Shown: piece by piece, positions 23,535-31,645 of the stretch
Layout of the letters: every line of letters begins with the position of its first letter
Position numbering within the stretch: the first letter of the stretch is position 1
Source of the DNA: an uncultured Mageeibacillus sp.
Lineage (GTDB): Bacteria; Bacillota; Clostridia; Saccharofermentanales; DTU023
Reading direction: 5' to 3'
DNA: 31,645 nt
NCBI GenBank assembly: GCA_964524395.1
Contig: CAZGCS010000003.1
Coordinates: forward strand, 1 to 31,645
Made by a program: the position numbers and the translations under genes
The notes under the pieces: model-generated
What the model was told of the DNA's origin: nothing
Databases searched by the model: none
What the model saw: the letters and a program-made list of their open reading frames with translations, nothing else

Positions 23535-24911
23535 GTGGCGGATTATGATTACAACATGGGGTTAGGTGATGGCCTTTACGCGACGATCCGGGTCATCGGG
23601 ATCGGCGGAGGTGGTTGCAATGCTGTCAACCGAATGATTGAGGGCGGTGTCCAGGGCATTGAATTCATCGCGGTCAATACCGACCATCAGTCCCTGCGGC
23701 ATTCGAAAGCAGGCGAAACCATCCGGATCGGTGAAAAAGTGACCCGCGGTCTGGGCGCCGGTGCACAGCCGGAGCTGGGCCAGAAAGCGGCCGAGGAGAA
23801 TATCGAGGAAATATCCAAGGCACTGGAAGGATCTGACATGCTCTTCATCACGGCCGGCATGGGAGGCGGTACCGGTACCGGGGGGGCACCCGTCATCGCA
23901 CAAGTAGCCGAAAGGCTTGGGATCCTGACTGTTGCTGTGGTGACCACGCCCTTCCGCTTCGAGGGCTCGCGCCGGCGGCAGAATGCCGAGAAGGGGGTTC
24001 GTGAACTCCAGCAACATGTTGATTCACTGATCGTGGTTCCCAACGACAAGCTGCTTGAGATCGCCAGCGATGACACGACTCTTGACGAGGCTTTTAACCT
24101 GGCCGACCGGGTTCTCCAGTATGGTGTTTCCAGCATTTCCGATCTGGTGGCCGTACCCGGTTTGATCAACCTGGACCTGGCGGATGTCAGACGGGTTATG
24201 ACCAATGCCGGCGTCTGCCATATGGGCATCGGGCGGGGAAATGGGGAGAGCAGGGCAGCCACAGCTGTTAAACAGGCCATGACCAGCCCACTGCTTGATA
24301 CCACGATTGACGGCGCCCAAAGCATCATCATCAACTTCACCGGCGGCCATGATATGAAGATGAAGGAAGTCAATGAGGCCGCTTCCCAGGTCCGCGAAGC
24401 CGTTTCTCCCGATGCAGAGATTATCTTCGGTGCGGTAATCGACGAGAATATGCAGGACGACCTGGTTATTACCATCATTGCGAGCCGCTTTGGCGGTGAC
24501 AGCATGCCGGCCCGCGCTGCTCGCGCAGGACACGTCCAGGCGCCGGCCCAACCGGCTTTCAGCTTACCGTCCAGACAGGCACAGCCAACCGGGTCGCGGT
24601 CGGCCATTGATGATTTGCCCGAATTCCTGAGACCTCCACGCGGCGGGCAGCTGAGGGGCCGCGAAACCGGCCAGGCAATGCAGGGAACCGGGTTCAGCCG
24701 GTCCAGTCAGCGGCACGACGACCAGGCCATGTCCGACATGATTGACCGGGCAACGGAAAACGCGGCCAGACATAACCGCAACATCCCCCGCGTGCTTGAT
24801 GAGGCTCCTCTTGACGGGACAGGCCCCACTCCCGAAAGACCGCGGACGGGGGGTAAACAGGAAGGCAGGGTCCTGCCCTGGTTCCTGCGGGATGATGACA
24901 TGGATCGCTGA
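23535..24911 (+). CDS. ftsZ: Cell division GTPase FtsZ with an extended C-terminal region
   Basis: VIGIGGGGCNAVNRM, AVNTD, GLGAGAQP, tubulin signature GGGTGTG, T7 loop INLDLAD. Start set at GTG 23535, 9 nt after AAGGAG. Confidence 0.99.
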   Translation: MADYDYNMGLGDGLYATIRVIGIGGGGCNAVNRMIEGGVQGIEFIAVNTDHQSLRHSKAGETIRIGEKVTRGLGAGAQPELGQKAAEENIEEISKALEGSDMLFITAGMGGGTGTGGAPVIAQVAERLGILTVAVVTTPFRFEGSRRRQNAEKGVRELQQHVDSLIVVPNDKLLEIASDDTTLDEAFNLADRVLQYGVSSISDLVAVPGLINLDLADVRRVMTNAGVCHMGIGRGNGESRAATAVKQAMTSPLLDTTIDGAQSIIINFTGGHDMKMKEVNEAASQVREAVSPDAEIIFGAVIDENMQDDLVITIIASRFGGDSMPARAARAGHVQAPAQPAFSLPSRQAQPTGSRSAIDDLPEFLRPPRGGQLRGRETGQAMQGTGFSRSSQRHDDQAMSDMIDRATENAARHNRNIPRVLDEAPLDGTGPTPERPRTGGKQEGRVLPWFLRDDDMDR

Positions 24912-25042
24912 CAGGCAATTGCGTGATCAACCTGCCTCGGACAGCCGGCGGGGCCGAAGACATTTTACTTTCTGACAGGGTGCGGCCGGATCGATGATCC
25001 GGTCGTGCTGTCTGCCGCATCCGGGGGAAGGAGGCCAAACTT

Positions 25043-25567
25043 GTGAAATGCCCTAACTGTGAAGGCAATGACGACCGGGTCGTCGATTCCAGGCCTTCGG
25101 AGGATGGCAATACCATCCGCCGCAGGCGTGAGTGTCTGCTGTGCGGAAGTCGTTTTACCACTTATGAGAAACTTGAAAATATCCCTTTGATGGTCATCAA
25201 AAAAGACGGAAGCCGCCAACCTTTCGACCGGCAGAAGCTCCTGATCGGTATCATGAAAAGCTGTGAAAAAAGGCCGGTAACCACCCAGCAGATTGAGGAG
25301 CTGATTGACCAGGTGGAACGGGCGGCAGGTAACGCCTTGAAGAGGGAGATCAGCACTTCAGAAATCGGGGAATTAGTCCTGAAACAACTGAGAAAAATAG
25401 ATGAAGTCGCCTACATCCGTTTCGCGTCGGTGTACAGGGCTTTTGGAGATATACGCTCTTTTTTCAAGGAGATCTCCTCCCTGCTCCAGAATGATGGCGG
25501 GGAAAGCGGACAGGATCCTGAAGAAGGTGGTTTTCTTGATCAGGCCTGGGATGAAGAGCAGACATAA
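25043..25567 (+). CDS. nrdR: Transcriptional repressor NrdR
   Basis: Zinc ribbon MKCPNC...VVDSR...IRRRRECLLCGSRFTTYE, ATP-cone (VIKKDGSRQPFDRQK), AYIRFASVY; SD AAGGAGG. Confidence 0.98.
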   Translation: MKCPNCEGNDDRVVDSRPSEDGNTIRRRRECLLCGSRFTTYEKLENIPLMVIKKDGSRQPFDRQKLLIGIMKSCEKRPVTTQQIEELIDQVERAAGNALKREISTSEIGELVLKQLRKIDEVAYIRFASVYRAFGDIRSFFKEISSLLQNDGGESGQDPEEGGFLDQAWDEEQT

Positions 25568-25584
25568 ACGAAGAGGAGCCCAAG

Positions 25585-26313
25585 ATGGAAGAATCAAAAC
25601 ACGTATTGATCGTGGACGATGACAAGCATATCAGCGAACTGCTCAAGCTCTACTTTGAAAAAGACGGCTTTGAGGTTTCCTCCTGCTATACGGGGGACGC
25701 CGTCATGCCCATGGTTCGCGCTGTCATGCCCGATGTTATCATTTTGGATCTGATGCTGCCTGGCATGAGTGGCTTTGATATCATGCGGCAGTTGCGGCGC
25801 GAGTCGGATGTTCCTGTTTTGATGCTGACTGCACGCAGTGACACCCTGGACAAGATTATAGGTCTGGAGCTGGGCGCGGATGACTACATCCTGAAACCCT
25901 TCGAACCCAAGGAGCTCCTGGCCCGTGTCAAAGCAGTCCTGAGACGCTCCAACTTACCGGCGGCTGCTGTCCAGACTGGTGAAACAAACAAAAAGGAAGT
26001 GGTGACTTATCCCGATCTGGTCGTCGACCGTATCCGCTATGCCGTCCGGATCGGCAACCGGGAGATCGATATGCCGCCCAAGGAGCTGGAGCTTCTCTTT
26101 TTTCTCGCTTCACACCCCAACCGGGTATACACCCGGGATCAGATTCTGGAGCATATCTGGGGCATGGATTACTATGGTGAACAGCGTACCGTTGATGTTC
26201 ATATCAAACGGATCAGGGAAAAACTGGATGTGATTGAACATCCGCTGTGGCAGATCAAAACGGTCTGGAGCGTGGGCTACAAATTTGAATTGAAGGAGCA
26301 GCCCGAACCGTGA
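25585..26313 (+). CDS. OmpR/PhoB-family response regulator
   Basis: Receiver domain LIVDDD...ILDLMLP (phosphoacceptor Asp)...LTAR...GADDYILKPF; winged helix RTVDVHIKRIREKL, IKTVWSVGYKF. Confidence 0.96.
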   Translation: MEESKHVLIVDDDKHISELLKLYFEKDGFEVSSCYTGDAVMPMVRAVMPDVIILDLMLPGMSGFDIMRQLRRESDVPVLMLTARSDTLDKIIGLELGADDYILKPFEPKELLARVKAVLRRSNLPAAAVQTGETNKKEVVTYPDLVVDRIRYAVRIGNREIDMPPKELELLFFLASHPNRVYTRDQILEHIWGMDYYGEQRTVDVHIKRIREKLDVIEHPLWQIKTVWSVGYKFELKEQPEP

Positions 26314-27815
26314 GAAGGTTGTCGCTTTATACCCGCACCCTGCTTACAATTTCGGCCGCAATCCTGATTATCTTCCTGGCGCTTGCCCTGATTTACGGGA
26401 CCATTTACAGCTTTTCCTCCTGGCAACAACGGCAGGAGGAACTGAAGCGCAACGCCGCTGAGCTGGCCAGTCTCACTGAAAACAGGATGGATGCCGCCCA
26501 TACCACCTTTACCAGTACTGACATCACAGGGCATATTGCGTTTGCGGCCCGGTCGACAACGGCCTTTGTCTGGATTGTCAACGCCGGAGGCGAAATTATC
26601 TACCATACAGGAATACCGGCTGAAACCATGGCGCTTCTCGAACGCTCCGGCGGTGACGGAACCGGCGACCCGCTTTTACCTCCGCAAGCCCGCAACATGG
26701 AGCAGGCGGTCTTTTGTCTGGCAGGCGATCAGACCGGCTTTGCCGACCTGCTCCCCGAGGCGGCGGAATGGCTGGTGGCAAGCGCGCCAATCGGCAGGCA
26801 CGGTGATCTCTACACGGGGGAGGTGGTTCTGCTCAAGCGGCATCACACAGAGAATTTCAGCGCTTTCCTTTTGGAACACAATGTACCGATTTCTTTTACC
26901 ATGGCCTTTTTTCTTTCGCTGGCCATCATCATCTGGCTGTCCCGTAACATTACCAGGCCGATTTCCGCCCTGGCCAAGACGGCCAATTCCGTTTATGCCG
27001 GTGACCTTTCCGCCCGGGTCAGCATAGGCGGGGAGCCGGGAAATGACCGGGCTGTTCCGGTAGGTCGCGAAGATGACCTGACCCGGCTGGTCAGAACCTT
27101 CAATATGCTGATCGCGCAGTTTGAGGAGAGGGAACAGCAGCACTCGGAATTTCTGGGCAATGTATCCCACGATCTTCGAACGCCGGTCACTTCCATTGGC
27201 GGTTTCATCGAGGGGATGCGAGACGGTACAATCCCGGAGGAAAAATTTGATTACTATCTGGATATCATCAAGGTGGAGACCAACCGCCTGGAGGGCCTGA
27301 TCAACACCTTATTCGATCAAACGGACCAGGGGGGCCAAGCCGCGTTGAAGCAGGATGTCTTCGATCTCAATGCCTTGATCCGCCAGGTCAAACAATCCTT
27401 CGAACCCATGCTGGCGGAGAAAAAGATTGAGCTGGAAACGGTCTTTGATCACCGCCACGAGGAACCTGTCCGGGCTGTCGGTGATGTGGGCCAGCTGACC
27501 CGGGTTCTTAACAATGTAGTTGCCAACGCCATCCGCTTTACCCCGGATGGAGGCATCATCCTCATCCGCACCAAGGCAGGTGAGCGGTCAATCCGTGTCT
27601 CGGTTGAGGATAACGGGCCCGGTATCGCGGAGGAAGATTTACCCCGGATTTTTGATCGCTTTTACAAGGCGGACAAGTCACGCCACGGTGAGGGGTCCGG
27701 TTTGGGCCTTTACATCGCGCGCGCCTTGATTCAACGCCACGGCCAGCAGATTGAGGCTGGCAGGTCGGCCGATCTGGGCGGCGCCCGTATCCGCTTCACA
27801 GTGGCCAGGCCCTGA
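26310..27815 (+). CDS. Membrane sensor histidine kinase (2 TM, extracytoplasmic domain, HAMP, HisKA, HATPase)
   Basis: Two TMs flanking an extracellular region of about 150 aa; HAMP (ITRPISALA); H-box VSHDLRTP; N-box NVVANAIRFT; G1 DNGPGI; F-box IFDRFYK; G2 GSGLGL. GTGA overlap with the regulator. Confidence 0.96.
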   Translation: MRRLSLYTRTLLTISAAILIIFLALALIYGTIYSFSSWQQRQEELKRNAAELASLTENRMDAAHTTFTSTDITGHIAFAARSTTAFVWIVNAGGEIIYHTGIPAETMALLERSGGDGTGDPLLPPQARNMEQAVFCLAGDQTGFADLLPEAAEWLVASAPIGRHGDLYTGEVVLLKRHHTENFSAFLLEHNVPISFTMAFFLSLAIIIWLSRNITRPISALAKTANSVYAGDLSARVSIGGEPGNDRAVPVGREDDLTRLVRTFNMLIAQFEEREQQHSEFLGNVSHDLRTPVTSIGGFIEGMRDGTIPEEKFDYYLDIIKVETNRLEGLINTLFDQTDQGGQAALKQDVFDLNALIRQVKQSFEPMLAEKKIELETVFDHRHEEPVRAVGDVGQLTRVLNNVVANAIRFTPDGGIILIRTKAGERSIRVSVEDNGPGIAEEDLPRIFDRFYKADKSRHGEGSGLGLYIARALIQRHGQQIEAGRSADLGGARIRFTVARP

Positions 27816-27896
27816 TCCCGGGCAGAAACCGGATGTTCATAAAAAGGTTATATGTGGTCGATAAACTGCTTTTAAGACCAGGCGAGGGGGTAAGTT

Positions 27897-29114
27897 GTGA
27901 CAAAAGATAAAACCCGGCTCATCATCCTGATTGTAGTCTTTTGCCTTGCGGTTCTATTAATCCCCCTGTCATGTCCGGGGCAGAAGCCGGCTGTAACTGA
28001 ACCGGCAACGGAAATGACATCCACGCCCCTTACTACAGAAAGAACTACGACGACGAGTACCACAAGCACGACCTCCAGGACTGAGCCGCACAGTGTTCCG
28101 CCGGAGACGGAAGGGGATCCCCCCCTGCAAGACCCCGGCACTCCGTTGTCGGAACTGTTTGCTGAGGTGGCGCCTTCTGTGGTGTCGGTTCATGTTTCCA
28201 TCCCGGCTTCCTCGCTTTACGCCAAACGGGAAGAATTCTTCTCAGGTCTGATTGTCGATGAATCCGGCATCATTGTCACCACTTACAGCCTCTTGGAACG
28301 GGCTCTCGACTACCGTGGAAACCTTCTGGCGGATGCTTCAATCCACCTTTACGTCCGCGGCTTCGACCAGTCCTTTGAGGCCATGCTTGTAGGCTTCCAG
28401 GCGACGGTTGATTTGGCCCTGCTCAAAGTAAAGGAACCGGGAGACGCGGTTTTCAAGGCTCAGCCCCTGTCCCGGGAACCGGAGCTGGCAGTCGGAACCC
28501 CTGTCTACAGCATTGGCTACCCGCCTGTCCTGATCAAGGAGGGTGGTCTCTCCCCCGGTTATATCATTTCGCTTTACCGCACCTCTTATGAAGAGGACGG
28601 TTCCCCCGTAGGCCTGATCGAAACCAGTATCCCAACCATGACTGTGTACGCAGGCAGCCCCTTGATCAACGAGCAGGGCCAGGTCGTCGCCATTGCCAGC
28701 GGCTATCTCAAGCGGATTTATGTCCAGCATCTGGGTTATGCGGTGCCTTCGCCGATCGTGGCGGATGTGATCAACCGGATCCTGGACAGCCCCGACCAGT
28801 TGCCTGAAGCCAAAGCCACCCTCGGCATCACGGTGCTGGGGGACGGGGAAACCGACAGCCTCCGCCGGATGTTCGGTTATCCCGCAGGGCTGTACATCAA
28901 TCTGGTAAAACCTGAAAGCGCGGCGTACACCTCAGGCTTGAACGCAGGTGATATCCTGCTCAGCATCAACGGCCAGGCCATGGAGGCTGTCAGAGACCTG
29001 ATGACTTTCCTGGGAGGTCAGGCCGTCGGGACCCTGGTTGAGATGACGGTCTACCGGCCGGGGGACGACAGGACCCTGACCCTGACCTGTTACCTGCTTG
29101 AGGAGACACCGTGA
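27897..29114 (+). CDS. HtrA/DegS-like S1C trypsin-fold plus PDZ membrane protein, predicted catalytically inactive
   Basis: N-terminal TM, Thr/Pro linker, APSVVSV, FSGLIVDESGIIVT, DLALLKV, GTPVYSIGYP, AGSPLINEQGQVVAI, PDZ (LGITV...GLNAGDILLSING). The His and Ser triad positions are substituted (TTYSLL, VYAGSPL). Confidence 0.88.
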   Translation: MTKDKTRLIILIVVFCLAVLLIPLSCPGQKPAVTEPATEMTSTPLTTERTTTTSTTSTTSRTEPHSVPPETEGDPPLQDPGTPLSELFAEVAPSVVSVHVSIPASSLYAKREEFFSGLIVDESGIIVTTYSLLERALDYRGNLLADASIHLYVRGFDQSFEAMLVGFQATVDLALLKVKEPGDAVFKAQPLSREPELAVGTPVYSIGYPPVLIKEGGLSPGYIISLYRTSYEEDGSPVGLIETSIPTMTVYAGSPLINEQGQVVAIASGYLKRIYVQHLGYAVPSPIVADVINRILDSPDQLPEAKATLGITVLGDGETDSLRRMFGYPAGLYINLVKPESAAYTSGLNAGDILLSINGQAMEAVRDLMTFLGGQAVGTLVEMTVYRPGDDRTLTLTCYLLEETP

Positions 29115-29782
29115 CCGATTCCCTGCGTGACCGCGCCCACCGGGTAACAGCTGTTTTGACCCGGCATTACCCCGAAGCCACGGTGACCTTGAACCACCAG
29201 GCCCCCTGGGAACTTCTGGTTGGCGCCATCCTGGCTTCCCAGTGTACTGACGCGCGTGTGAATCAGGTTACACCCGCGCTTTTTGACCGTTTCCCCGGCC
29301 CGCAAGCCATGATGGGGGCGGATCAGGACGAGCTGGAAAGCCTGATCAGGACCTGTGGCCTCTTTCGTTCCAAGGCCAGGGCGCTCCGGGGGACTGCCCG
29401 TCTCGTGGTGGAGGAACATGCGGGCCAGGTACCTTCAAGCCAGAAGGAATTGATGGAGCTTCCCGGCGTGGGAAGAAAGATCGCCAACCTGATCATGGGC
29501 GACGCTTTCGGCGCCCAGGCCATCGTCGTCGACACACACTGCGCGCGCATCAGCAACTTGCTTGGCTTCACCGACAGCGACAAGCCGGACCGGATTGAGC
29601 GTGACTTGATAAAACTGATCCCTGAGGAGGCGTGGACACGCTGGGGCCACCTCATGGTGGCGCACGGACGGACTCTTTGCCGGGCCCGGTGCCGCTCTTG
29701 CTTTGAGTGCCCTGTCCGCCTACAGTGCCGCTACGGCATGGCCCTTGACGCTTCAGCGGAAGTGGAGGGTGGTTGTGTCTGA
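29111..29782 (+). CDS. nth: Endonuclease III
   Basis: ELLVGAILASQCTDARVN, HhH motif LPGVGRKIAN (catalytic Lys), VDTH (catalytic Asp), [4Fe-4S] motif C-X6-C-X2-C-X5-C. Confidence 0.96.
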   Translation: MTDSLRDRAHRVTAVLTRHYPEATVTLNHQAPWELLVGAILASQCTDARVNQVTPALFDRFPGPQAMMGADQDELESLIRTCGLFRSKARALRGTARLVVEEHAGQVPSSQKELMELPGVGRKIANLIMGDAFGAQAIVVDTHCARISNLLGFTDSDKPDRIERDLIKLIPEEAWTRWGHLMVAHGRTLCRARCRSCFECPVRLQCRYGMALDASAEVEGGCV

Positions 29783-31645
29783 CAAGGTGGAACCCGGATG
29801 GCTTGAAAACAAACTTTCGGTACTTCCCGGCATCTCGGATAAAAGACAAAAAATGTTCGCCAAGCTGGGAGTGGAAACGCTGCATGACCTGCTTTGGCTT
29901 CTGCCGCGGTCTTACGAGGACTGGCAGGAAAGAGTTCCCGTCGGCAAGCTCCAGGAGGGGGATTTCTTATCCTTCGAAGCTGCCGTTGAGAGTATGCCTT
30001 CCATGGTCCGGCGGGGTAAGCTGACCTGCACGCGTGCCCTTTTGTCAGATGGGAGCGGCTCCATCCAGGGGATTTGGTTCAACCAGCCCTGGCTGGCCGA
30101 TCGTATCCGGCGTGGCGGCAAGTATCTCTTCCGCGGCAGAATTGAGGGGAGAGGGCGGGGGCGCCAGGTCGTCAATCCCGATTTCCGGCCGCTGGACGCG
30201 GGCGGCCTGCCGGTTTTCCTGCCCGTCTATCCACTGACCGCCGGCCTATACCAATGGAATATCCGGCAGGCGGTACAGGCGGTGCTTGACAGGGCTGACC
30301 CCGTCGCGGAGGAATCCCTGCCCCAGCGCGTAAGGACGGAGGCAAAACTGGCGACAGCCGATTTCGCCATGCGCCGTATCCATTTTCCTGCCAGCAAACG
30401 TGACATGGAGGTGGCACGTCGGAGGCTTGCCTTTGAGGAACTCTTTCTGGTCATGGCCGGCCTGCGCGCACTGAAGTCGGGCCGGCACCGGCAAAAGGGG
30501 CCAGTCATGGAAGTTGGCCGGGCAAGCGAAAACTGGCTTGGCGGTCTGATCTCCAGGCTCCCCTTTGAACTGACGGCGTCCCAGCAAGCTGCTTTGCAAA
30601 CCATCTTGGACGATTTCAGGAAAGATGAACCTGCCAACCGGCTTCTTCAAGGCGATGTCGGTTCCGGTAAGACAGTGGTTGCCGCTCTGGCCATGGCAGC
30701 AGCCTGCAAGGAGGGCTACCAGTCGGTCATGATGGCGCCCACTACCATTCTGGCCGGTCAACATGCGAATACTCTGTCCAGACTCCTGGAAGGGAGCGGC
30801 CTTGAAATCGCTCTCTTGACAGGGGCAGTGACAGCAGCCCGGAGAAAAGCCCTGCTTGCCGGACTCAAGGACGGCTCCATCGATATCCTGATAGGTACCC
30901 ACGCGGTACTGGAGACGGATGTTGCTTTCTCCAACCTTGGTTGCTGCGTGACCGATGAACAGCACCGGTTCGGCGTCAGGCAACGTGTTTTGCTGTCGGG
31001 CAGGGGCGACTTGGTGCCCCATGTTCTGGTCATGTCGGCGACCCCCATCCCCAGAACCCTGGCCATGATCCTGTACGGTGATCTGGATATCTCGGAAATC
31101 AGGGATATGCCGGCCGGCAGGCTGGCTGTCAAAACCTATACAGCGACCGGGAAAGATCGACCGCGCCTTGACCGCATGATTGAGAAGCAGATTGAGGAGG
31201 GTCATAAAGTTTACGTGGTCTGCCCCCTGATCGAAGATTCGGAGGCGATGGCTGCCCATTCTGCAGAAGCCGTTTATCAAAGACTGTCAGAAGAGGTCCT
31301 GCCAGGCCGGCGTGTGGCTTTGATGCATGGAAGACTTAAGCCCGGGGAGAAGCTGGCTGTCATGGAGGCTTTCGGGCGCGGCGAGATCGATCTTCTGGTT
31401 TCGACCACGGTGATTGAAGTCGGCATTGACCAGCCGGACGCGACCCTGCTTGTGATTGAAAATGCGGAGCGGTTCGGCCTGTCTCAACTTCATCAGTTGC
31501 GGGGGCGTGTCGGCCGCTCTTCCCGTCAATCCTACTGTATCCTGGTCAGTGACAGCCAGGATCCGCTGATTCGCAAGCGCCTTCAGGTGCTTTGCCGCAA
31601 CCACAGCGGTTTTGCCATCGCGGATCAGGATTTGTTGCTCCGGGG
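29775..31645 (+). CDS. recG: ATP-dependent DNA helicase RecG, 3' end truncated by the window edge
   Basis: GTG 29775 after GGAGGG: MSDKVEPGWLENKLSVLPGISDKRQKMFAKLGVETLHDLLWLLPRSYED; LLQGDVGSGKT, DEQHRFG, MSATPIPRTL, TTVIEVGID, ERFGLSQLHQLRGRVGR. Absent from the ORF track because there is no stop. Confidence 0.97.
   Translation, partial: MSDKVEPGWLENKLSVLPGISDKRQKMFAKLGVETLHDLLWLLPRSYEDWQERVPVGKLQEGDFLSFEAAVESMPSMVRRGKLTCTRALLSDGSGSIQGIWFNQPWLADRIRRGGKYLFRGRIEGRGRGRQVVNPDFRPLDAGGLPVFLPVYPLTAGLYQWNIRQAVQAVLDRADPVAEESLPQRVRTEAKLATADFAMRRIHFPASKRDMEVARRRLAFEELFLVMAGLRALKSGRHRQKGPVMEVGRASENWLGGLISRLPFELTASQQAALQTILDDFRKDEPANRLLQGDVGSGKTVVAALAMAAACKEGYQSVMMAPTTILAGQHANTLSRLLEGSGLEIALLTGAVTAARRKALLAGLKDGSIDILIGTHAVLETDVAFSNLGCCVTDEQHRFGVRQRVLLSGRGDLVPHVLVMSATPIPRTLAMILYGDLDISEIRDMPAGRLAVKTYTATGKDRPRLDRMIEKQIEEGHKVYVVCPLIEDSEAMAAHSAEAVYQRLSEEVLPGRRVALMHGRLKPGEKLAVMEAFGRGEIDLLVSTTVIEVGIDQPDATLLVIENAERFGLSQLHQLRGRVGRSSRQSYCILVSDSQDPLIRKRLQVLCRNHSGFAIADQDLLLR

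Follow-up and report, generated by a model that had tools for sequence, protein, structure and literature searches.

A conserved, catalytically degenerate HtrA homologue behind a regulator-type promoter beside a two-component system in anaerobic-digester Clostridia

HtrA proteins act both as proteases and as chaperones. In the DNA described here, from an uncultured Mageeibacillus sp., a gene for an HtrA homologue that has lost two of the three residues of the catalytic triad lies directly behind the genes for an OmpR/PhoB-class response regulator (RR) and a sensor histidine kinase (HK). The window, by which we mean the whole stretch of DNA analysed, comprises 31,645 nt of the forward strand (contig CAZGCS010000003.1, positions 1–31,645; assembly GCA_964524395.1). 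From 22.9 kb to the end of the window every gene lies on the + strand, as do all the window features located below, and the gene order is DUF1290 (sbp-like), ftsZ, nrdR, RR, HK, HtrA-like, nth and recG. The relatives used for comparison are 29 related loci from public assemblies and 19 species-level metagenome-assembled genomes; they are labelled Mageeibacillus sp., Fastidiosipila sp., Saccharofermentanales or Clostridiaceae bacterium and come mostly from digesters or bioreactors.

The RR gene (25585–26313) encodes an intact protein of 242 amino acids with Response_reg and Trans_reg_C domains (Pfam), in which the key residues are present: the D11/D12 acidic pocket, the phospho-acceptor D55, T82 and K104. 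The HK gene (26310–27815) encodes an intact protein of 501 amino acids, arranged as a first transmembrane helix (TM1), ectodomain, second transmembrane helix (TM2), HAMP, HisKA and HATPase, and retains H287 in the HisKA domain as well as the N, G1, F and G2 boxes. The stop of the RR gene and the start of the HK gene overlap in a GTGA that can be read directly at 26310–26313. A preliminary description of the locus had reported an intact regulator and kinase coupled through this tetranucleotide, and domains, active-site residues and overlap all bear it out. The RR is the most conserved gene of the block, with 64–94% identity and a ratio of non-synonymous to synonymous substitution (dN/dS) of 0.02–0.07. 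Its nearest relatives are MtrA, RegX3, WalR (YycF) and PhoB, every one of them under the equivalog cut-off. Among NCBIfam models those for MtrA, PhoB and YycF score highest, all below cut-off, with MtrA the best at 236 bits against a threshold of 300; among solved structures in the PDB, RegX3 and MtrA are the best matches and essentially tied, whilst in comparisons with receiver-only PDB entries MtrA and YycF come slightly above B. subtilis PhoP and E. coli PhoB.

The HK ectodomain spans ~155 amino acids (residues ~35–190) and is modelled as a mixed alpha/beta fold with a predicted local distance difference test (pLDDT) score of 85–92, which reads as a PAS/Cache-like fold in the model. It has no Pfam match even at E ≤ 10, Cache included, and homologues of the sensor region are detectable only within the set of related loci. 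The kinase has no cytoplasmic PAS domain, and its best full-length fold match is WalK in the WalK–YycH integrative model 9a5d. The HAMP connector (27021–27075, residues ~238–255) carries a variable, charged insert of 15–35 residues that is modelled at low confidence; its length differs among sub-lineages, which is unusual for HAMP domains.

The HtrA-like open reading frame (27897–29114) starts at a GTG codon 6 nt downstream of a Shine–Dalgarno sequence, GAGGGGG (27884–27890), and matches Trypsin_2 (E = 1.1e-15) and PDZ_2 (E = 3.4e-11) in Pfam. An N-terminal signal or anchor (27897–27974) ends in a conserved cysteine, Cys26, within an imperfect lipobox (IPLSC); the corresponding proteins of sister lineages have either a good lipobox (VSGC or VSSC) or a plain transmembrane anchor or helix. 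Behind this lies a disordered stalk rich in Thr, Ser and Pro (27975–28151, residues ~27–85), seen in the alignment and in an AlphaFold2 model in which residues 25–80 have pLDDT <50. The trypsin-fold (HtrA protease-like) domain follows at 28152–28796, delimited by Pfam, alignments, AlphaFold2 and Foldseek, and then a PDZ domain with a conserved C-terminal tail, YLLEExP (28809–29114), whose carboxylate-binding loop reads T-L-G-I and includes the invariant Gly310. In the model, which was built on 13 family members, the folded core has pLDDT 85–95, and Foldseek aligns it with DegP, DegQ, DegS, M. tuberculosis HtrA and PepD (1y8t and 2z9i) at E values of 1e-23 to 1e-20 and a probability of 1.0. By the criteria for HtrA/DegP proteins (MEROPS S1C) the trypsin-like fold and the C-terminal PDZ domain are both there; the His–Asp–Ser triad is not, and the window protein scores below the curated NCBIfam thresholds (89 against 416 bits for TIGR02037 and 75 against 470 bits for SerProtHtrA). 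An apparent insert in the LA loop (ALDYRGxLxxxASI, making the His-to-Asp segment 11 residues longer) was considered as a family-specific feature and dropped, because canonical Firmicute-type HtrAs share the His–Asp spacing of 41.

Searches with phmmer against the PDB and MAFFT alignments to canonical HtrAs agree on the state of the triad. The column of the catalytic His is occupied by Ser131 (codon 28287–28289; VTTYSLL as against VTNxHVV) and that of the catalytic Ser by Ala252 (codon 28650–28652; VYAGSPL as against GNSGGPL), whilst the catalytic Asp172 is kept (codon 28410–28412; DLALLK). The protein had been introduced as an HtrA-fold/PDZ protein lacking its catalytic residues; the fold, the PDZ domain and the loss of His and Ser stand, but the retained Asp means that two of the three triad residues are gone rather than all of them. 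Judged from these substitutions, the homologue should be unable to work as a serine protease.

The loss extends far beyond the window. Catalytic His is missing from 30 of 30 proteins encoded at the locus, its column being filled by S, T, A, G, D, Y or E, and catalytic Ser from 29 of the 30, the single lineage that keeps it having neither His nor Asp. An exhaustive profile search of 1.84 billion representatives recovered ~20 clusters at 50% identity above the canonical plateau, every one of them without His; the combinations at the three positions include S-D-A, S-D-P, T-D-S, G-G-S, S-G-S, A-G-A, D-G-Q, Y-D-S, E-S-E and E-D-T. Such a scatter of residues is what would be expected if catalysis had been lost once and early, leaving the freed positions to drift. 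The nearest canonical H-D-S relative that can be placed is encoded at another locus, beside a metal ATPase. Meanwhile the dN/dS of the dead HtrA is 0.10–0.18, like that of nth, with dS near saturation, and many of its residues are invariant, those of the PDZ carboxylate-binding loop with Gly310 among them. Purifying selection and invariant residues together argue for a pseudo-enzyme rather than a pseudogene, and the alignments indicate that loss of the triad is ancient and that the protein has been kept under purifying selection across a deep lineage. The earlier suggestion that the protein is not a degrader thus agrees with a triad that appears dead across the family, in which fold and PDZ loop are nevertheless conserved.

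The gap between the HK and dead-HtrA genes (27816–27896) is predicted to contain the promoter of the latter. Its length of 81 nt is as first described, but the AT-richness ascribed to it is only modest, GC content being 45.7% as against about 52–58% in the flanks. Among the related loci the gap varies from 60 to 280 nt, and between sub-lineages the gap sequences cannot otherwise be aligned; once they were anchored on a GTTCA motif that they share, a regulator-type box, TGTTCATAAAAAGGTTATAT (27834–27853), emerged in an alignment of 19 distinct loci. The first half-site, TGTTCAYA, is near-invariant, and a weaker second half-site lies 11–12 bp downstream. A −10 hexamer, TAAACT (27862–27867), follows 10 bp after the box and conforms to TAnnnT in all box-carrying lineages; in the anchored alignment, positions 29, 30, 32 and 34 carry high information content. 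Box and −10 hexamer stand at fixed spacing in all 19 loci, and no −35 element is recognisable at this promoter. The GTTCAY element is not itself a −35, because at 20–21 nt it is too far from the −10. Activator-dependent promoters of the PhoB type are built in this way: a direct repeat with a period of one helical turn takes the place of the −35 and ends 10 bp before the −10. The box and −10 therefore have, on sequence grounds, the layout of a PhoB/WalR-type (class II) activator site, and we regard the box as a candidate operator. This conserved operator–promoter footprint is new in the present analysis.

A position weight matrix (PWM) built from these sites finds a single strong match in the window (30.2 bits, the next best being 12.5), and across 326 kb of related loci one strong match per locus, always in the HK–HtrA gap and on the + strand; several of the matched sites lay outside the PWM training set. 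Four deep lineages (L110, L111, L113 and L114) were fetched afterwards as a held-out test, and in three of them, L110, L113 and L114, the box recurs at the same spacing. In L114 it reads GTTCAC-N5-ATTCAC followed by TAAAGT, and in both L114 and L008/L010 the direct repeat is clean, reading (G/A)TTCAY-N5-ATTCAY with a period of 11 bp. A consensus scan found no intrinsic terminator between the HK and dead-HtrA genes, which makes read-through, and so basal co-transcription from the nrdR–RR–HK unit, likely.

Other identities for the box were considered and set aside. An NrdR box was entertained since nrdR lies upstream; the element is not palindromic, and its ATATGTG portion is not conserved outside the close clade. 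A sigma-28 or extracytoplasmic function (ECF) promoter would draw on CGATAA, which is conserved in the close clade only, TAnnnT being the conserved element. Rfam reports no RNA family in 24800–29900. In one sub-clade (L005:5755–6000, also L027–L029) the leader downstream of the box extends to 110–170 nt and contains a conserved hairpin, CATCGCGATCATTGCGATG, to which no known RNA family is assigned, and in L010 (5218–5350) the long HK–HtrA gap begins with three tandem GC-rich palindromic units (…CAGCGCCTTAGCGCTG…) that look like a small repeat-element insertion upstream of the box.

A metagenome-wide scan for box plus −10 returned at least 80 matches. Four of the matches listed fell in orthologous loci, and most of the others were chance matches on unrelated contigs of low GC content. 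On one unrelated metagenome contig of 1.36 kb, a box-like site TGTTCATATTTTGGTTATAAT...TACAAT (L039:892–925) precedes by 42 nt an RR gene whose product shares 55% identity with the window RR in the receiver domain; since the surrounding sequence is AT-rich and may be no more than an ordinary promoter, the site gives at most a weak hint of autoregulation in a related system. The box followed by TAnAAT also occurs in unrelated mid-GC contigs (L053:1684/L059:2437 and L063:195), in one case before a pair encoding a lipoprotein and an RND pump and in another before an ABC transporter; related regulators may act at these sites, or the matches may be due to chance.

Gene order around the triad is strongly conserved. 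In a tblastn survey the order ftsZ–nrdR–RR–HK–dead HtrA–nth–recG was found in all 28 loci long enough to judge, and also in L110, L111 and L113, the three deeper representatives whose sequence extends far enough; in L114, dead HtrA–nth–recG can be seen before the contig ends. In all loci examined the dead HtrA is directly behind the RR–HK pair. The synteny survey proposed for regulator–kinase–dead HtrA triads thus returns a conserved triad. Synteny, however, spans ftsQ to ddl, taking in the whole ~10-kb neighbourhood beyond the triad, so that conservation of the triad alone says little and the three genes are not singled out as a unit: the idea of the triad as a unit holds as far as conservation goes, but the surrounding block is equally conserved.

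Upstream, nrdR (25043–25567; Zn_ribbon_NrdR and ATP-cone in Pfam) occupies the same place in all loci, and its stop is separated from the RR start by only 17 nt (25568–25584), a spacer that contains the Shine–Dalgarno sequence and is seen in every related locus. Owing to this proximity the two-component genes are probably co-transcribed with nrdR, from a promoter in the ftsZ–nrdR gap of 131 nt (24912–25042). The pairing of nrdR with a two-component system is odd, joining a nucleotide-pool regulator (the ribonucleotide-reductase repressor) to envelope regulators. Downstream, the dead-HtrA stop and the start of nth (endonuclease III, 29111–29782) share GTGA at 29111–29114, which couples the two genes translationally, and nth overlaps recG, the next gene, by 8 nt (29775–29782). 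This chain of overlaps is retained in most loci. If the box promoter is inducible, nth and recG, both concerned with DNA repair, would be co-induced with an envelope protein.

Among characterised systems the locus has several partial counterparts. In M. tuberculosis the gene order is mprA–mprB–pepD. MprAB–PepD of that species, MprAB–HtrA of C. glutamicum and CssRS–HtrA/HtrB of B. subtilis each have, as here, an envelope- or secretion-stress two-component system adjoining an HtrA-family gene. The CssR operator is probably an octamer, TTTTCACA. Gram-positive bacteria commonly have a two-component system that lies upstream of htrA and controls it (PMC12826053), and MprA is known to bind the htrA promoter (PMC12113857), in line with the characterisation of HtrA as a typical output of adjacent OmpR-family systems. 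In those systems the regulator activates htrA directly (PMC12113857, PMC12826053); here a candidate direct-repeat box takes the place of the −35. Two differences stand out: their HtrAs are active proteases that degrade misfolded proteins, whereas here the triad is dead family-wide, and they are autoregulated, whereas no box lies upstream of the RR operon.

Resemblances to WalRK are more numerous. As in WalRK, the RR is of the OmpR class and its gene overlaps or adjoins that of a kinase with HAMP and an extracellular domain, which here is putatively Cache/PAS-like, and the locus also encodes an extracytoplasmic protein with a membrane or lipid anchor. The absence of a cytoplasmic PAS is shared with the WalK of C. 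difficile (PMC9210968). Autoregulation is absent from wal operons, and all those studied so far include accessory membrane proteins; C. difficile has a lineage-specific lipoprotein, WalA, and a passenger gene in the order walA–walR–walK–truA2 (PMC9210968). The present locus likewise shows no autoregulatory site, carries a housekeeping passenger (nth–recG in the place of truA2) and adjoins cell-division genes. An HtrA gene follows the wal operon in Bacillus and Listeria (PMC12826053), the order in B. subtilis and Listeria being walR–walK–yycH–yycI–walJ–htrC, and here too an HtrA-family gene is downstream of the pair. It differs in being dead and directly after the HK, and no homologue of YycH, YycI, YycJ or WalA is present. 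The box in this clade, TGTTCA-N6-GGTTAT, has half-sites that resemble those of the WalR consensus, TGTWAH-N5-TGTWAH (PMC9210968), but does not match it exactly: position 5 is C, and the spacing is ~12 bp instead of 11. The NCBIfam scores fall short, at 196 against 725 bits for HK_WalK (the best stretch being the kinase core) and 225 against 340 bits for resp_reg_YycF; these models may misfit clostridial versions such as C. difficile WalK, which is itself without a cytoplasmic PAS. With equivalog scores not reached, the likeness to WalRK amounts to resemblances only.

The MtrAB–LpqB system of Actinobacteria offers a third comparison, with its RR–HK–lipoprotein order, a WalK-like kinase that has no cytoplasmic PAS and a link to cell division, and it is MtrA that gives the RR its best NCBIfam match. 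LpqB binds the MtrB ectodomain, forming a three-component system (PMC12757749, PMC9210968). LpqB, however, is not an HtrA or PDZ protein, and the RR stays below the MtrA cut-off. Like LpqB and YycHI or WalA, the dead HtrA appears to be anchored outside the membrane and is encoded with an RR–HK pair. For the loss of catalysis itself the precedent is MamO, a repurposed HtrA-family pseudoprotease with a degenerate triad and a non-proteolytic job (PMC4794232). MamO shares the HtrA/trypsin fold and the degenerate triad; it differs in binding metal, in belonging to a magnetosome island and in having no two-component system. The NCBIfam MamO score is 21 against 800 bits, and the family alignments contain no conserved His pair.

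We lean towards reading the locus as an envelope module of the WalRK/MtrAB/MprAB type in which the regulator-controlled adjacent gene encodes a dead, membrane-tethered HtrA that serves as a binder or holdase, and rate this as having a somewhat better than even chance of being right. A position next to the two-component genes and a box promoter of its own, of a kind used by OmpR/PhoB-type regulators, fit a dead HtrA that belongs to the system. The HK would detect a cell-envelope cue through its conserved, putatively Cache/PAS-like ectodomain, and the phosphorylated RR would bind the box and activate transcription of the dead-HtrA gene and, by read-through, of nth–recG. Held outside the membrane on a long flexible stalk, the dead HtrA might use its PDZ domain and dead cleft to bind polypeptides that are exported or unfolded, or else a single specific client of the wall or membrane; acting as a holdase or adaptor, it would not cut what it binds. 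It could damp the kinase indirectly if it took away or masked the stress signal. In B. subtilis, HtrA without protease activity has been reported to raise both the fitness of the bacterium and enzyme yields (PMC10715036; PMC12826053). Of the roles first suggested for the protein, co-sensor, kinase modulator or holdase, a non-proteolytic one fits these data, but nothing specific to a co-sensor or kinase modulator emerged.

Several observations weigh on the other side. The adjacent RR is only a candidate for the protein that binds the box, and no second box was found upstream of nrdR or RR, so that no autoregulation is seen. In L111, whose dead HtrA reads S-D-S at the triad positions, the 60-nt gap (L111:4941–5000) has no TGTTCAYA box and carries instead an extended −10, TTGTATAAT; this points to a change from regulated expression to a constitutive mode. 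The holdase or binding role is read solely from retained features, and the stretch occurs in DNA runs only (bioreactors and digesters), with no RNA run containing it. Finally, the dead-HtrA gene is translationally coupled to nth–recG and separated by a gap from the HK gene, which, with the synteny of the whole block, means that adjacency could be historical.

The last of these points can be taken further. The dead HtrA might be a unit with nth–recG, with the box bound by an unrelated regulator and the two-component system controlling other genes, all of them neighbours by history only. The GTGA and 8-nt overlaps that tie the gene to nth and recG, the 60–280 nt that part it from HK, the ftsQ-to-ddl synteny and the unrelated passenger truA2 of C. 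difficile walRK (PMC9210968) would be accommodated by such a history. Against it stand a promoter that lacks a −35 and has a direct repeat of OmpR-family type at a class II activator position, and a near-invariant box matched by an adjacent RR that is the most conserved gene of the block; an exported, wall-side protein also has no evident functional tie to cytoplasmic DNA repair. We think this explanation very improbable. That the protein is still a protease, using non-canonical catalytic residues, is almost certainly wrong. Several deep sub-lineages do retain Ser in a CSGGPL motif, and in this clade a serine stands two residues after Ala252 (YAGSPL). This Ser254 was considered as a replacement nucleophile and rejected, the position being Gly, Cys or Ala in sister species (YAGGPL, YAGCPL and YAGAPL); no alternative nucleophile or base is conserved, His is absent from every family member, and in the at-locus lineage that keeps Ser the Asp column is Gly. 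A non-catalytic partnership, in which the dead HtrA forms mixed oligomers with an active paralogue or activates or targets a peptidoglycan hydrolase or another protease, seems rather improbable. HtrAs work as trimers and higher oligomers, a fold retained here, and the dead LytM factors EnvC and NlpD are a precedent for non-catalytic activators of enzymes. The lipoprotein LbcA serves CtpA as a non-catalytic partner (PMC8764530), and the locus sits beside the dcw/ftsZ cluster, systems of the WalRK/MtrAB type being known to control wall hydrolases (PMC9210968). Nevertheless, none of more than 30 loci encodes a candidate partner enzyme nearby.

A closer association with the kinase is also conceivable. 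In a true three-component system the dead HtrA would contact the HK ectodomain or transmembrane helices and set the kinase/phosphatase balance, perhaps presenting PDZ-bound ligands; we judge this unlikely. In its favour, the lineage-specific HK ectodomain and the dead HtrA co-occur at every locus examined, the kinase has the domain layout of C. difficile WalK (extracellular sensor, HAMP, no cytoplasmic PAS), its best fold match comes from a WalK–YycH model, and basal co-transcription is likely in view of the missing terminator. Accessory proteins of this kind have precedents in LpqB, which binds the MtrB ectodomain (PMC12757749), YycH/YycI with WalK, and WalA with C. difficile WalK. On the other hand, a regulated-type promoter of its own is typical of an output rather than of a stoichiometric partner, and the stalk of ~55 residues puts the folded domains away from the membrane. 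Co-evolution was assessed by a mirror-tree test in which species divergence was controlled, a quadratic background term allowed for saturation and recG served as the control. The first-pass correlation between HK ectodomain and dead HtrA (r = 0.70) fell to ~0.3 after these corrections, which is not above the recG control, and was rejected as a signal. In gene arrangement, the dead HtrA is coupled more tightly to nth–recG than to HK. The proposal of an undescribed three-component unit finds no specific support here: the mirror tree gives no signal specific to the HK ectodomain, and the promoter is separate. The same analysis gave an unexplained residual correlation of r 0.6–0.7 between RR and dead HtrA (20 loci, species divergence removed), above any control pair. 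In a more particular version, which we consider unlikely, the dead HtrA is an accessory sensor, specific to this lineage, in an essential cell-wall system like WalRK; its PDZ domain and dead cleft would capture a ligand, either wall-derived or an exported protein, and it would dock on the HK ectodomain. Were it true, this would be a previously undescribed HtrA-based three-component sensor, in which the HK responds not to the ligand as such but to whether a pseudo-protease is occupied, and any contact between dead HtrA and HK would add a new class of accessory sensor to the WalRK/MtrAB-type systems.

Taken together, the locus presents a known module, a two-component system with an HtrA, in which the HtrA is an anciently dead but conserved pseudo-protease behind a conserved regulator-type promoter. 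In a lineage of abundant anaerobic-digester Clostridia the protease half of the protein was lost early, whilst regulatory wiring, PDZ domain and fold were kept. The candidate operator (the TGTTCAYA box and −10) is sharply defined, and together with the regulator pair it is open to in vitro tests that do not require the organism to be cultured. The family is a separation of function made by evolution, and as such it could reveal a non-proteolytic role of HtrA in an envelope-stress or wall-homeostasis circuit.

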